Shown here piece by piece: positions 547 to 5,790 of a stretch of 44,559 bases of DNA (its first letter is position 1; each line of letters starts with the position of its first letter). The notes below the pieces were generated by a model, which did not search any database, was not told the DNA's origin, and saw only the letters and a program-made list of their open reading frames with translations. The translations under genes and the position numbers were made by a program. Origin of the DNA: Escherichia phage AAPEc6; sequence record NC_047769.1; one strand, written 5' to 3'.

Positions 547-726
547 ATGACATTAAACAACCGTGAACTGTCCGTTCTCTTCACTCTGTTGTGCTACATG
601 ATTCGTAACAACGAATTACTTACAGACGATGAGTTAGCCTTGTATCACCGCTTTCTTAACGAAGGTTGGATCGATACAGTTAATCAATACCGTAACATGA
701 TAGATGAGTTGAGGGAGGGTAAATAA
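547..726 (+). CDS. Hypothetical early protein (59 aa; ORF could start at 505)
   Basis: ORF track 505..726; internal ATG at 547 preceded by GAGGA at 535-539. Confidence 0.4.
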   Translation: MTLNNRELSVLFTLLCYMIRNNELLTDDELALYHRFLNEGWIDTVNQYRNMIDELREGK

Positions 727-950
727 TGTATCAACATGAGGTATTCTTTGAATCAGCTAGCGAAGCTATTCGCTTCCGTGATGATATGATGCAAGCTGGT
801 GTAGGCGTTGATGTGTATCACTATTTGATAGATTACGACACTGAATATCACCGAGTTACCTTAGTATCTGAGTATGACAACCAAGTCATTACTGAGTACC
901 TAGGCAGTGAAGATTACGATTACGATGAAGTAATCACGACAAATCTCTAA
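726..950 (+). CDS. Small acidic early protein (74 aa, D/E/Y-rich C-terminal half)
   Basis: ORF track; TAATG stop-start overlap with the upstream ORF suggests translational coupling. Confidence 0.45.
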   Translation: MYQHEVFFESASEAIRFRDDMMQAGVGVDVYHYLIDYDTEYHRVTLVSEYDNQVITEYLGSEDYDYDEVITTNL

Positions 951-958
951 ATTAACTG

Positions 959-987
959 TTGACAGCCACGGCATACAAGGTTACATT
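959..987 (+). promoter_or_regulatory. Candidate host sigma70 early promoter (TTGACA, 17-bp spacer, TACATT)
   Basis: Perfect -35 hexamer and plausible -10 hexamer in the early region. Confidence 0.3.
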
Positions 988-1079
988 AAGCATCAAGACG
1001 GCGACGTCTTTAAACATCCCGCTCTTTAACAATACGGTTTGTGTCTTGATAGGCTAACTAACTAACTAAGGTAATTATC

Positions 1080-1190
1080 ATGAAAGGTTTAATTTGTGTA
1101 GAACGTATGGTCAATGGTAAACTTGAAATATTACCACTGGAAAACCAATCTAGCTTCAAAGAGTGGTATGGCTGTTTCTCACTGATTTAA
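1080..1190 (+). CDS. Small ORF (36 aa)
   Basis: ATG at 1080 after the CTAACTAACTAA/AAGG element; below the ORF-track size cutoff. Confidence 0.25.
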   Translation: MKGLICVERMVNGKLEILPLENQSSFKEWYGCFSLI

Positions 1191-1340
1191 GGTAAAGGCT
1201 GGCACTAGTCAGCCTATCAAGGCGCAAACCAAGCTCTTTAACAATTTGGATAAAGCTTCTTAGTCTGGATAGGTTAAACCTAGGAGATTCTCTTGAGTCT
1301 CCTATAATGTAACCTAACTAACTAAATGAGGATTAATAAC

Positions 1341-1694
1341 ATGGCTATGTCTAATATGACTTACTCTCAGGTTTACAACACCGCTCATGCTGCATTAGTT
1401 GAACGCGTATGGGATGATGCCATTGATTGTATCGATAACGCACATGATGCAATCCATGAGGTGGCGGATAGTGCTGTACCAATCTATTATGCTGACATCT
1501 TCTCGGTGATGGCCAGTGAAGGAATCGACCACTTCTTCGAGGATTCTGGCTTAATGCCAGACACTAAGGATGTGACGGTCGTACTACAAGCCCGTATTTA
1601 TGAACAACTCACCATTGATTTATGGGAACGTGTTCAAGATATGATTGATGCGTACATCGATTCCGCTGAGGATTCAGAAGAAGAGGAAGAATAA
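1341..1694 (+). CDS. ocr: Ocr-like anti-restriction DNA mimic (T7 gp0.3 homolog)
   Basis: Translation MAMSNMTY...[19 protein letters not shown]...[12 protein letters not shown]...[15 protein letters not shown] with poly-Glu tail closely matches T7 Ocr as remembered; GAGGA 8 nt upstream of the ATG at 1341 (ORF track starts at 1326). Confidence 0.9.
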
Positions 1695-1696
1695 GG

Positions 1697-1810
1697 ATGG
1701 AAAAGCAATATAACTTTATCTTTTCAGACGGTGTAACCCTGAAGTGTTCCCTACGATTCGCACAAATTCGTGAGGAAGTACTAGGCACTACATACAAACT
1801 ATTTAGCTGA
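1697..1810 (+). CDS. Small ORF (37 aa) directly after ocr
   Basis: ATG at 1697 with an upstream purine-rich stretch; position analogous to the small genes after T7 0.3; weak. Confidence 0.2.
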   Translation: MEKQYNFIFSDGVTLKCSLRFAQIREEVLGTTYKLFS

Positions 1811-1825
1811 CACTATAAGAGAAGG
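1801..1825 (+). promoter_or_regulatory. Variant phage-type promoter (ATTTAGCTGACACTATAAGAGAAGG)
   Basis: Keeps the GACACTATA core but deviates around +1; possibly a weak or early-class promoter. Confidence 0.35.
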
Positions 1826-1886
1826 CTTAACAAGGCGTTGCTACGGTAGCGCCTGATTAAACTTTCACTTACTAGGAGTTAAGATT

Positions 1887-2114
1887 ATGGATTTAGATAG
1901 CATCATTATGGCGTTTGCTCTTATTGGCTTAAGCTGGTGCTCCTATCACCTTTACCGTGAGTTCTTATTTGATAAAGCTAAACGCAAACTAAGAAAGGAA
2001 GGCGGTAATTACCTTTGTGTAAGAGGTGGGCTTGTAGAATACATTGCACCTAACGGCACGGAATGCGCCATTAGCAAAGATGCATTTATAGAGACGTGGC
2101 ATTACATCAAGTAA
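1887..2114 (+). CDS. Small early membrane protein (75 aa, N-terminal hydrophobic helix)
   Basis: ORF track; AGGAG 8 nt upstream of the ATG. Confidence 0.45.
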   Translation: MDLDSIIMAFALIGLSWCSYHLYREFLFDKAKRKLRKEGGNYLCVRGGLVEYIAPNGTECAISKDAFIETWHYIK

Positions 2115-2175: not shown

Positions 2176-3099
2176 ATGACTGCTGAAAACATCATTCTGT
2201 CTGTTCGTGAAGCTGCAACCACTGAAATCAAGCAACACTTAGACAATATCGGCACTTCTTACATCAAAGTTGGCGCTTGTCTGAATGAATTACGCGGTGA
2301 TTTCGAAGGTCAAAAAGACTTTTTAGCTTATGTAGAATCAGAGTTCGGCATCAAGAAAGCACAATGCTACAAGCTGATGAGTGTAGCCCGTGTCTTTGAA
2401 GGAGATGAACGCTTTAAAGGTGTGGCTATGCGTGTAATGCTGGCGCTCGTTCCTTTCGCTGATGAGAATATAATCATGGAGAAGGCCGCAGAACTCGCCG
2501 CAGATGGCAAGCTGGACACTAATGCCGTAAATGCCCTGATTGATCCTAAGAAAGAGACAAAGGCCGAGACGGTACAATCTAAGGCTGAGGCGGTAAAACC
2601 GCAGGAGAATGCGACTGAGGCCGCAGAAACTATGCAAGGACATGCGACCTTTGAGGATTTCATCTTAGAGAAGGCGAAAGAGGAGTTACAAAGTGTGCCG
2701 CCAGTAAGTGAGTCGGGTAACGACGAATCCGCACCGTGGGAAGATGAAAGCAAGCCGGAAGCGCCTAAGGCCGCGCCACTGGATAACACGGCTAACACCG
2801 AGAATGCCGCTATTGCTGGTCTGCTGGCACAAATTAAAGCACTGACTGAGCAATTACAGGCAGCCAATGACCGCATCGCCTCCTTAAGTAGCGCACGCGA
2901 AAGCAAGAAAGCAGCCGCGCCTATGCTGCCGCAATTCAAATCTTCCTGCTTCTATGCTCGCTTAGGTTTAAGCGCTGAGGAGGCAACGAAGAAAACAGCA
3001 GTTAACAAGGCACGCCGCGAACTGGTTAAGCTGGGATACGGTGAAGGCCATGAGGCATGGCCCTTAATCTCTGAGGCAGTAGAAGAGTTGACTAAGTAA
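2176..3099 (+). CDS. Early protein of unknown function (307 aa; folded N-domain, acidic linker, C-terminal coiled coil)
   Basis: ORF track 2167..3099 (GTG); ATG at 2176 after AAGGTGA; sits where T7 has the 0.7 kinase but shows no kinase motifs. Confidence 0.6.
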   Translation: MTAENIILSVREAATTEIKQHLDNIGTSYIKVGACLNELRGDFEGQKDFLAYVESEFGIKKAQCYKLMSVARVFEGDERFKGVAMRVMLALVPFADENIIMEKAAELAADGKLDTNAVNALIDPKKETKAETVQSKAEAVKPQENATEAAETMQGHATFEDFILEKAKEELQSVPPVSESGNDESAPWEDESKPEAPKAAPLDNTANTENAAIAGLLAQIKALTEQLQAANDRIASLSSARESKKAAAPMLPQFKSSCFYARLGLSAEEATKKTAVNKARRELVKLGYGEGHEAWPLISEAVEELTK

Positions 3100-3162: not shown

Positions 3163-5790
3163 ATGCAAGACCTACACGCTATTCAACTTCAACTTGAAGA
3201 AGAAATGTTTAACGGCGGTATCCGTCGCTTTGAAGCGGACCAACAACGCCAGATTGCATCCGGTAATGAATCAGACACGGCATGGAATCGCCGCTTATTG
3301 TCCGAGTTAATCGCGCCAATGGCTGAAGGTATTCAGGCATACAAGGAAGAGTATGAAGGTAAAAGAGGCCGTGCACCGCGTGCATTAGCTTTCATTAACT
3401 GCGTAGAAAACGAAGTGGCAGCATATATCACGATGAAAATCGTTATGGATATGCTGAACACGGATGTAACCTTGCAGGCTATAGCCATGAATGTAGCTGA
3501 CCGCATTGAGGACCAAGTACGTTTTAGCAAGCTGGAAGGTCACGCCGCCAAATACTTTGAAAAAGTTAAGAAGTCACTTAAGGCAAGTAAGACTAAATCA
3601 TATCGCCATGCGCACAATGTAGCGGTAGTGGCTGAAAAGTCTGTCGCTGACCGTGATGCGGACTTCTCCCGCTGGGAGGCATGGCCTAAAGATACCTTGT
3701 TGCAAATAGGCATGACCTTGCTAGAAATCTTGGAGAATAGCGTATTCTTCAACGGGCAACCTGTTTTCCTTCGTACCTTGCGCACTAACGGCGGCAAGCA
3801 TGGCGTTTACTACTTACAGACTAGCGAACACGTGGGTGAATGGATAACTGCATTTAAAGAGCACGTAGCTCAGCTGAGTCCAGCCTATGCACCTTGCGTT
3901 ATTCCTCCGCGTCCGTGGGTTTCTCCGTTTAATGGTGGCTTTCACACCGAGAAGGTGGCAAGTCGCATCCGTCTAGTAAAAGGTAACCGCGAGCACGTCC
4001 GCAAGCTGACTAAAAAGCAAATGCCAGCGGTTTATAAGGCTGTTAATGCATTGCAAGCCACTAAATGGCAGGTTAACAAGGAAGTGTTGCAGGTAGTAGA
4101 AGATGTTATTCGTCTAGACCTCGGTTATGGTGTACCTTCCTTTAAGCCGCTCATTGACCGCGAGAACAAACCAGCTAACCCTGTTCCTCTTGAGTTCCAA
4201 CACCTGCGAGGCCGTGAACTGAAAGAGATGCTTACGCCAGAACAGTGGCAAGCTTTTATAAACTGGAAAGGAGAATGTACCAAGCTGTATACCGCTGAAA
4301 CTAAGCGCGGAAGCAAGTCGGCGGCAACCGTTCGCATGGTTGGACAGGCCCGTAAATACAGCCAGTTTGACGCAATTTATTTTGTGTATGCACTGGACAG
4401 CCGCAGCCGTGTATACGCGCAATCTAGCACGCTCTCGCCGCAATCAAATGACTTAGGCAAGGCATTGCTCCGTTTTACCGAAGGGCAGCGTCTTGATAGC
4501 GCTGAGGCGCTTAAGTGGTTTTTGGTGAACGGGGCGAATAACTGGGGTTGGGATAAGAAAACTTTTGACGTGCGCACCGCTAACGTGCTGGACGGCGAGT
4601 TTCAAGACATGTGCCGCGACATTGCAGCCGACCCGCTGACCTTCACTCAATGGGTAAATGCCGACTCCCCTTACGGCTTCCTTGCATGGTGCTTTGAATA
4701 TGCGCGTTATCTTGATGCACTGGATGAAGGCACGCAAGACCAATTCATGACGCACCTCCCAGTCCATCAAGATGGTAGTTGTTCTGGTATACAGCACTAC
4801 AGTGCTATGCTACGCGATGCAGTAGGTGCGAAAGCAGTAAACCTTAAGCCCTCTGACTCTCCTCAAGATATTTATGGTGCCGTTGCGCAGGTAGTAATTC
4901 AGAAGAATTATGCATACATGAATGCAGAGGCTGCGGAAACCTTCACTTCTGGCAGCGTGACTTTAACAGGTGCGGAACTGCGTAGTATGGCTAGTGCGTG
5001 GGATATGATAGGAATCACTCGCGGCCTAACCAAAAAGCCCGTAATGACACTACCTTATGGCAGCACACGTCTAACCTGCCGTGAGTCAGTGATTGATTAT
5101 ATCGTTGATTTAGAAGAAAAAGAGGCCCAACGGGCTATTGCGGAAGGGCGTACCGCCAATCCTGTACACCCTTTTGATAATGACCGTAAAGACAGCCTTA
5201 CACCTAGCGCAGCTTATAACTATATGACAGCTTTAATCTGGCCTTCTATTTCGGAAGTGGTTAAAGCTCCTATAGTGGCAATGAAAATGATTCGTCAGCT
5301 TGCCCGTTTCGCAGCTAAAAGGAATGAAGGCCTAGAGTATACCCTGCCTACTGGCTTCATCTTGCAACAAAAGATTATGGCTACTGATATGCTCCGCGTA
5401 TCTACTTGCTTGATGGGAGAAATCAAGATGAGTCTACAGATTGAAACAGACGTAGTGGATGAAACGGCAATGATGGGCGCTGCTGCTCCTAACTTTGTGC
5501 ATGGTCATGATGCCAGCCACCTTATCTTAACAGTCTGCGACCTTGTTGATAAAGGGATTACATCTATCGCAGTTATTCATGACTCTTTTGGCACTCATGC
5601 AGGCCGTACAGCCGACCTTCGTGATAGCTTAAGGGCAGAAATGGTGAAGATGTATCAAGGCCGTAATGCGCTGCAAAGCCTGCTAGATGAGCACGAAGAA
5701 CGCTGGTTAGTTGATACCGGAATACAAGTACCAGAGCAAGGGGAGTTTGACCTTAACGAAATCTTAGTTTCAGACTATTGCTTCGCATAA
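3163..5790 (+). CDS. Single-subunit DNA-directed RNA polymerase (T7 gene 1 family)
   Basis: 875 aa; motifs [29 protein letters not shown] and C-terminal ...DYCFA match T7/SP6-type RNAPs; AGGAG RBS. Confidence 0.97.

Follow-up and report, generated by a model that had tools for sequence, protein, structure and literature searches.

What do the small proteins encoded around the anti-restriction gene ocr contribute to infection by Escherichia phage AAPEc6? In the genome of this phage (sequence record NC_047769.1; its whole length of 44,559 nucleotides (nt) is referred to below as the window), positions 547-2114 contain ocr and five short open reading frames (ORFs): gene 1 (59 amino acids, aa), gene 2 (74 aa), ORF36 (36 aa), gene 4 (37 aa) and gene 5 (75 aa), the products of the numbered genes being designated gp1, gp2, gp4 and gp5. 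The genes and regulatory signals described here lie on the plus strand. An interpretation made from the letters only, called here the sequence-only reading, listed the same ORFs, every one of which is indeed present, and proposed that the acidic proteins among them are plausible DNA mimics or anti-defence factors additional to Ocr. The best explanation of the cluster as a whole, to which we assign a probability of about 0.6, is an early region that combines host-takeover core genes with exchangeable, conflict-related genes.

The 2-kilobase (kb) stretch around positions 547-2114 shares 96.5% DNA identity with Escherichia phage EEc4 and is matched by about 100 records of SP6-like phages, mostly Vectrevirus (the K1-5/K1E group of the Molineuxvirinae). 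The gene order (gene 1, gene 2, ocr as gene 3, gene 4, gene 5, gene 6, RNA polymerase) is that of K1-5, K1E and EEc4, and an SP6-type single-subunit RNA polymerase of 875 aa, encoded at 3163-5790, forms the right border of the early region. On the basis of the EEc4 identity, the gene order and the polymerase, positions 547-2114 were recognized as the left-end, host-transcribed early (class I) region of a K1-5-like Vectrevirus. The sequence-only reading, which had placed these ORFs and ocr in an early region like that of T7-like phages, is supported in this respect: the phage belongs to the T7 supergroup, and its early region is transcribed by the host RNA polymerase and contains ocr. Compared with the reference records of K1-5, K1E and SP6 (GenBank AY370674, NC_007637 and AY370673, respectively), gp2, ORF36 and gp4 are 100% and gp1 is 98% identical to their K1-5 counterparts, while gp5 is of the K1E and not of the K1-5 type (98.7% identity to K1E gene 5). 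K1E genes 1.5, 2.5 and 2.8 are not present in AAPEc6, and both K1-5 and K1E carry an ocr allele that is only about 60% identical to the T7-like allele of this phage. The cluster is in itself ordinary and already known: its genes have been catalogued since 2004 as hypothetical early genes of K1-5-like phages and are near-identical to database entries.

All five small ORFs are genuine protein-coding genes. Each of them, as well as ocr, is preceded by a Shine-Dalgarno-like motif 6-9 nt upstream, and all five evolve under purifying selection, with ratios of nonsynonymous to synonymous substitution (dN/dS) of 0.01-0.33 (Nei-Gojobori counts against orthologues) and mostly synonymous change. Comparative genomics, one of the checks suggested in the sequence-only reading, shows that every small ORF recurs in relatives. 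Full-length PHROG matches were obtained for gene 1 (phrog_9275, 8e-40), gene 2 (phrog_6403, 2e-29), gene 4 (phrog_11746, 5e-30) and gene 5 (phrog_21597, 9e-56), all annotated as “unknown function”. Searches of Pfam, NCBIfam, PADLOC and PDB gave no match for gp1, gp2, ORF36, gp4 or gp5, and a search for exact peptide matches in the EVADES anti-defence catalogue (supplementary tables) was negative. In the layout of the cluster, two pairs of genes are translationally coupled (gene 1-gene 2 and ocr-gene 4), and ORF36 and gene 5 each stand as a single cassette.

Genes 1 and 4 belong to the core gene set of all SP6-like phages, and gene 2, ORF36 and gene 5 occupy exchangeable slots, the contents of which are swapped among close relatives. 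Among 50,697 phage records searched with tblastn, gp4 was found in 134 (Escherichia, Klebsiella, Salmonella and Proteus phages), gp1 in 100 (including SP6 gene 1 and those of Klebsiella, Citrobacter and Raoultella phages), window-type gp2 in 63, ORF36 in 36 and gp5 in 30, in the last case always with at least 90% identity. In a search of 5.8 billion proteins, nothing but close relatives was added, and these lie on contigs of approximately 44 kb. Phages K1E and fTuEco01 carry other cassettes in the region (1.5, 2.5, 2.8 and a 75-aa gene), the place of ORF36 included. The region thus fits the accessory-region concept of Silas et al., namely variable content between conserved anchors together with a known counter-defence gene. 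Genes 1, 4 and 6 and the RNA polymerase gene serve as anchors; what varies is the allele of gene 2, of ocr and of gene 5, and the presence of either ORF36 or K1E 2.5/2.8. Such slot swapping is the pattern of conflict-related accessory genes.

The ocr gene (1341-1694, in the position of K1-5 gene 3) encodes a 117-aa protein of the T7-type allele. It matches PF08684 with 141.7 bits against a cut-off of 25 bits (E=1.2e-41) and phrog_2568 (8e-49), and is 64% identical to T7 Ocr over 117 aa, which bears out its earlier identification as a clear Ocr. Its start was assigned to position 1341 (MAMSN...) and not to the ATG at 1326, because the latter lies inside the ocr ribosome-binding site. Within Vectrevirus ocr is dimorphic: the alleles of the window, EEc4 and fTuEco01 are T7-like and 92-98% identical to one another, while K1-5, K1E, ULINTec7 and CrRp3 carry the other allele, approximately 56-60% identical to that of the window (compared at 1575-1907 of locus L002 and 2346-2672 of locus L004). 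Gene 4 stays at least 95% identical beside this dimorphic gene, which points to recombination confined to ocr.

Gene 4 (1697-1810; phrog_11746) begins 2 nt after the ocr stop codon, and in SP6 and IME184 it overlaps the gene in the ocr slot. Its 37-aa product is approximately neutral and the best conserved of the early proteins: between the window and Proteus phage PM93, identity amounts to 83% for gp4, 75% for the N-terminus of the RNA polymerase and 51% for gp6, so that gp4 is comparable to the polymerase N-terminus in this respect. Comparisons with K1E, ULINTec7, SP6, IME184 and PM93 gave dN/dS values of 0.01-0.08, with 9-19 synonymous against 1-12 nonsynonymous differences; 13 synonymous and one nonsynonymous difference separate the window from ULINTec7, and synonymous sites are saturated in the comparisons with SP6, IME184 and PM93. 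We also considered gp4 as a specific partner of Ocr, an idea weakened by Proteus phage PM93 and Pantoea phage Nufs112, in which the gp4 homologue follows proteins that are unrecognizable as Ocr. gp4 therefore belongs to the slot and not to Ocr specifically.

The other core gene, gene 1 (547-726; phrog_9275), encodes a 59-aa protein with a net charge of -4. Its dN/dS values range from 0.11 to 0.21, and gp1 of the window and that of Proteus phage PM93 share 35-38% identity. A three-helix bundle was predicted for gp1 (helices at residues 5-20, 27-38 and 41-57), with a mean predicted local distance difference test score (pLDDT) of 78, and a structural neighbour search with this model returned none that was informative. 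An extended, 73-aa version of gene 1 starting at 505 was rejected, as no Shine-Dalgarno motif precedes it and neither K1E nor SP6 conserves the extension; the start at 547 is right.

The start of gene 2 (726-950; phrog_6403) overlaps the gene 1 stop codon (TAATG), and its dN/dS values range from 0.02 to 0.33. gp2 contains 17 D/E residues against 3 K/R, resulting in a net charge of -14 and an isoelectric point (pI) of 4.05, the high negative charge expected of a DNA mimic. The subfamily to which it belongs comprises 46 clusters, all of 74 aa, with a variable N-terminal half and a near-invariant C-terminal half (RVTLVxEYDNQVITEYLGSEDYDYDEVITTNL). The invariant residues are mostly those of a hydrophobic/aromatic core and of strands, plus a C-terminal Y-[DE]-[DE]-V motif. 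An AlphaFold2 model (pLDDT 88.6) predicts a compact beta-alpha-beta-beta-alpha-beta (ferredoxin-like) domain, whose structural neighbours are generic ferredoxin-like proteins only (CutA, PII and ribosomal S10). The EDYDYDE segment, which the sequence-only reading took for a tail, is predicted to form a loop and the last beta-strand of this domain and would thus be part of the fold and not a free end.

A profile search of 1.84 billion representative proteins yielded only about four true distant relatives of gp2. Designer pentatricopeptide-repeat proteins were also recovered (PDB profile search, E down to 1e-21; repeat proteins appeared in the 1.84-billion search as well), and these matches were rejected because they sum a 22-residue helix-turn likeness over the repeats, no single stretch of which passes alone. 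A family alignment that includes intermediates joins gp2 with SP6 gene 2 and its counterparts in IME184, PM93 (gp03), CrRp3 and VEc3 (orf24), all located right after gene 1; the wider family shares an MxKHE(I/V)(F/Y) start and a C-terminal (Y/F)[DE][DE]V(I) motif. The link is also backed by the profile relatives P0048, P0051 and P0054, by CrRp3 as a structural neighbour in BFVD and by a tblastn match to CrRp3 (E=3e-5). Across this family the net charge runs from -2 (VEc3 orf24) to -15 and the pI from 4.05 to 5.84. Strong acidity is therefore not a family-wide constraint on gene 2, and the conserved charge that would be expected of a DNA mimic was not found.

Members of the gene-2 family have been included in a published screen of 200 phage accessory genes (AGs) in wild E. 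coli strains, in which orf24, orf96 and orf4 were drawn from this ocr-containing accessory region (Silas et al., bioRxiv 10.1101/2023.04.06.535777). The product of orf96 (AFH19829.1, phage ACG-C91) has 97% identity with the gp2 of AAPEc6. It is absent from “all AGs that produced phenotypes” (bioRxiv 10.1101/2023.04.06.535777) and is not among the host-sensitizing genes of the published version, in which Ocr, ArdA and Ral were recovered (Nat Commun 2025, PMC12373910). The product of orf24 (AUE22229.1, phage VEc3), described as encoded in the same accessory region as ocr, triggers a prophage-encoded cell-death/growth-arrest system in strain ECOR61 (bioRxiv 10.1101/2023.04.06.535777). It resembles gp2 in its position after gene 1, in the MxKHE(I/V)(F/Y) start and in the C-terminal [DE][DE]V motif, but the two proteins share only 17% identity and orf24 is far less acidic (net charge -2). 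A homologue of gp2 does, then, interact with host immunity, as a trigger.

ORF36 (1080-1190; MKGLICVERMVNGK...EWYGCF) carries no annotation in most records, those of K1-5 and EEc4 among them. Its 36-aa product is 100% identical in 33 records and its DNA is 99-100% identical in the six loci checked; as both protein and DNA are near-invariant, conservation within Vectrevirus is uninformative. A more distant copy is found in Enterobacter phage EV136_1, a Kayfunavirus of another subfamily (75% aa and 70% nucleotide identity). Here the similarity starts at the ATG and ends near the stop codon, the flanks are unalignable and the differences fall mainly in third codon positions. Against Kayfunavirus-type copies the dN/dS is 0.12-0.17, with start codon, stop codon and Shine-Dalgarno motif intact. 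Contigs from IMG/VR and a phage-like contig from a Methylococcaceae metagenome-assembled genome contain further copies, 54-72% identical over 35-36 aligned residues, and the relatives have a common core, ICVERxVxG..WLxL..Q..YxEWxGCF. An anti-restriction gene encoding an S-adenosylmethionine (SAM) hydrolase directly follows ORF36 both in EV136_1 and in IMG/VR contig L010; in AAPEc6 it is ocr that lies downstream. Relatives outside the T7-like phages include a 57-aa protein encoded near a DUF932 gene (L012, 2438-2611), a 38-aa protein on an unrelated viral contig (L011, 2085-2201) and a 46-aa protein on the Methylococcaceae contig (L055, 3980-4120). The NinX-like N-terminus of the 57-aa relative is a weak match (E=0.02, below threshold), and a tblastn search of plasmids with this relative gave no match.

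Gene 5 (1887-2114; phrog_21597; K1E-type allele) encodes an approximately neutral 75-aa protein with a hydrophobic N-terminus followed by a basic linker; its most hydrophobic 17-residue stretch covers residues 3-19 (Kyte-Doolittle score 1.68). The dN/dS values are 0.05-0.18, and all relatives, at least 82% identical, come from Vectrevirus. At least five unrelated protein families, with lengths of 41-75 aa, occupy the slot between genes 4 and 6 in different phages, and almost all of these proteins have a hydrophobic, transmembrane or signal-like segment; in four loci the slot is empty (compared: the window, L002, L005, L013-L015 and L019-L037). As a small early protein with one hydrophobic segment, encoded in a hypervariable slot, gp5 is similar to the superinfection-exclusion proteins Imm and Sp of T4 and Llp of T5; it has no sequence similarity to them, and the likeness is by analogy only.

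The arrangement of the ocr region corresponds to that of T7. There the order is R0.3, gene 0.3, gene 0.4 (whose start overlaps the 0.3 stop), R0.5 and gene 0.5, which encodes a 47-aa hydrophobic protein; R0.3 and R0.5 are ribonuclease (RNase) III sites, and gp0.4 is an inhibitor of FtsZ (PMC13423816, PMC9372555). In AAPEc6 the same layout of hairpin, ocr, gene 4, hairpin and gene 5 was observed, with boxA in the leaders of both phages. A very small gene is coupled to ocr as 0.4 is to 0.3, so that gp4 holds the position of gp0.4; neither gp4 nor gp5 has detectable sequence similarity to gp0.4 or gp0.5. Genes 1, 2 and ORF36 are without a T7 counterpart, and comparison of the other small early proteins with T7 early proteins revealed no resemblance. 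AAPEc6 has no 0.7 kinase, and in that place carries the unrelated gene 6.

Gene 6 (2176-3099; phrog_4571) is kept in all Molineuxvirinae examined, with 31-98% identity, and its acidic 307-aa product matched no family in Pfam or NCBIfam. Its immediate downstream neighbour is the RNA polymerase gene, and a phage-promoter-like site precedes it.

Two predicted sigma-70-type early promoters lie in the region: P1 at 375-403 (TTGACA, 17-nt spacer, TACTAT; 10 of 12 consensus positions) and P2 at 959-987 (TTGACA, 17-nt spacer, TACATT). By its position and by analogy with the T7 A promoters, P1 would direct early transcription. The left end also contains a repeat array of the pentamer CTTAG (mostly CTTAGT): 15 copies were counted within the first 520 nt, where 0.5 would be expected. 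Ten of them follow one another at intervals of 10-13 nt (53-172), and another four surround P1 (321-388). The 12-mer GCTCTTTAACAA, which we take to be the rrn boxA antitermination sequence, is present in three exact copies in the window against 0.29 expected, each shortly upstream of a gene or cassette. Copy 1 (476-487) precedes gene 1, copy 2 (1021-1032) follows a small hairpin at 995-1010, and copy 3 (1233-1244), upstream of ocr, follows a hairpin at 1196-1215. T7, a Kayfunavirus and all SP6-like loci examined share this 12-mer in their early leaders. The boxA copies may recruit host antitermination factors and may also serve as recombination points for cassette exchange.

A long irregular hairpin (1261-1324; -27.1 kcal/mol, z = -5.3, none of 200 shuffled sequences as stable) lies right before the ocr ribosome-binding site. 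It is found at the same place in K1-5, K1E, SP6, IME184, CrRp3 and T7, with double (compensatory) changes in 7 of 18 pairs; in K1E the compensatory changes affect the apical stem. This hairpin, in the position that R0.3 has in T7, is probably processed by RNase III, and the transcript would be cleaved there. Genes 4 and 5 are separated by a second long hairpin of 74 nt (1808-1881; -29.7 kcal/mol, z = -6.2), for which 6 of 15 consensus pairs show compensatory double changes among Vectrevirus, SP6, Klebsiella phage IME184 and Proteus phage PM93; it is probably either an RNase III site, equivalent in position to T7 R0.5, or a leader element. No Rfam family was assigned to it: a match to a microRNA family at 1810-1881, on both strands, is far below the gathering score and reflects the hairpin only. 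This hairpin begins right at an SP6-type phage RNA polymerase promoter-like site (1801-1821, core ACACTATAAGAG at 1810-1821), which overlaps the last codons of gene 4. A second site of this type precedes gene 6 (2148-2168, core ACACTATAAGGT at 2157-2168, with one mismatch to the core). Both promoter cores precede the gene for the phage RNA polymerase itself, and transcription of genes 5 and 6 could therefore be carried out by the host enzyme as well as by that of the phage. The terminator-like hairpin after gene 5 (2121-2144) is not significantly stable (z = -0.9).

Judging from these signals and from the T7 analogy, E. coli RNA polymerase would start at the two strong sigma-70-type promoters and read through the three boxA elements, and the transcript would probably be cut at the two conserved hairpins before ocr and after gene 4. 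As for molecular targets, we infer that gp1 and gp4 bind conserved host machinery as host-takeover factors, gp4 standing in the place of T7 gp0.4 and gp5 in that of the small hydrophobic gp0.5. gp2, ORF36 and gp5 would act in host-phage or phage-phage conflict by protein binding: gp2 as a small ferredoxin-like protein that may be sensed by host immunity, and gp5 as a putative inner-membrane-anchored protein of the superinfection-exclusion or envelope-targeting kind.

Several observations weigh against this reading. Neither experiment nor homology (Pfam, NCBIfam, PADLOC, PDB, PHROGs) supplies a target for any of the five proteins, the proposed functions of the promoters, boxA elements and RNase III sites are deduced from consensus, and the membrane location of gp5 is predicted from its hydrophobicity. 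We considered gp4 a candidate homologue of T7 gp0.4 on account of its position and of an FSDxV...SLxxAQxxE resemblance, but hhalign gave no support: comparison of 17 gp4 with 13 gp0.4 sequences produced a best local match of nine columns (P=0.023, probability 2%) and no global match. In the absence of significant profile similarity, the gp4-gp0.4 analogy is positional only. Direct profile comparison of the gp2 subfamily with orf24 covers only the first 19 residues (probability 9%), so their relationship is accepted only via intermediates (P0054, CrRp3 and SP6 gene 2) and position. Finally, since no phenotype was listed for orf96, a broad counter-defence role of gp2 is weakened, at least in the strains and phages used.

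A rival explanation, taken from the sequence-only reading, is that the acidic small proteins (chiefly gp2, perhaps gp1) are extra DNA mimics that, like Ocr, would block DNA-binding defence enzymes of restriction-modification (R-M) or bacteriophage exclusion (BREX) systems. Small acidic alpha/beta DNA mimics such as Ugi do exist, and gp2 has the same acid density as Ocr (17 of its 74 residues, 23%), would be expressed from the first early promoter, before ocr, and is encoded within the ocr-containing accessory region. In these traits it is similar to mimics of the Ocr/ArdA type, but it has no sequence similarity to them, and its predicted fold, a compact domain with generic neighbours, differs from an elongated helical rod or charge array. 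Of the other small proteins, gp1 (net charge of just -4) and the nearly neutral gp4 and gp5 show no marked acidity. The invariant residues of gp2, largely those of its core and strands, also speak against mimicry, and the suggested expression test against defence systems has in part been done through orf96: no phenotype is listed for it, and the same screen did pick up Ocr, ArdA and Ral as inhibitors of R-M. Because of its compact generic fold, the acidity that is not a family trait and the silence of its orthologue in a screen able to detect R-M inhibitors, mimicry is the weakest option for gp2, which is probably not an Ocr-type DNA mimic; for the acidic proteins of the cluster in general we consider the idea unsupported and improbable. 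Even less credit can be given to the view that the 36- and 37-codon ORFs are not genes but ORFs present by chance, or leader peptides located over regulatory DNA or RNA that is itself conserved. It would account for the lack of annotation of ORF36 and gene 4 in several GenBank records, for the overlap of the last gene 4 codons with a phage promoter and for the near-identity of ORF36 in both protein and DNA within Vectrevirus, from which nothing can be learned about coding. It is contradicted by the very low dN/dS of gene 4, by the excess of aa over nucleotide identity between ORF36 and its Kayfunavirus counterpart, with unalignable flanks and intact translation signals, and by the diverged ORF36 copies in unrelated contigs, which makes it a very remote alternative.

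A stronger competitor, though still an unlikely one, holds that all five proteins are takeover factors directed at host physiology (cell division, transcription, cytoskeleton or envelope), like T7 gp0.4, 0.6, 0.7 and gp2, without any role in immunity; turnover in the slots would then reflect adaptation to hosts and not to defence systems. The core status of gp1 and gp4, which are under very strong purifying selection in phages that infect four host genera, agrees with this explanation, as do the synteny with T7 0.3-0.4-0.5 including the flanking hairpins, the inhibition of FtsZ by T7 gp0.4 and the failure of orf96 to give a counter-defence phenotype. However, the swapping of unrelated alleles at the gene-2, ORF36 and gene-5 slots within the same host species, together with the dimorphism of ocr, agrees better with turnover driven by conflict, a prophage-encoded system senses orf24, and ORF36 lies directly upstream of an anti-restriction gene in two unrelated subfamilies (ocr in one, a Kayfunavirus-type SAM hydrolase gene in the other). 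We prefer the combination of takeover core genes with conflict-related exchangeable ones. A role of the cluster in host-phage conflict is plausible, and the idea of candidate anti-defence factors in this region is partly supported by the swapping of three slots and by the prophage cell-death system that orf24 triggers.

A more specific joint reading can be put forward, tentatively: gp4, encoded in every case by a gene coupled to that in the anti-restriction slot, may be a new inhibitor of a conserved host machine, the gene 1-gene 2 pair a new two-protein module at the immunity interface, and ORF36 an unrecognized, widely scattered micro-protein family that travels with anti-restriction genes. 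In that case gp4 could take over the function of the T7 FtsZ inhibitor gp0.4 without being homologous to it.

The scale of the result is modest, as one of the genes has already been screened without effect and no new principle is indicated. Points of some interest are the extreme conservation of gp4, the conserved coupling of genes 1 and 2, and the scattered ORF36 family found upstream of two anti-restriction genes. The five small proteins are the first to be made after DNA entry. Three of the five are reasonable candidates for new counter-defence or exclusion functions, because they are encoded in fast-swapping slots beside ocr, and the 37-aa gp4 offers a clean target for finding a new host-inhibitory peptide. 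Since phages of the K1-5/K1E type are used against encapsulated pathogenic E. coli, their uncharacterized early genes bear on host range and on how safely such phages can be used in therapy.

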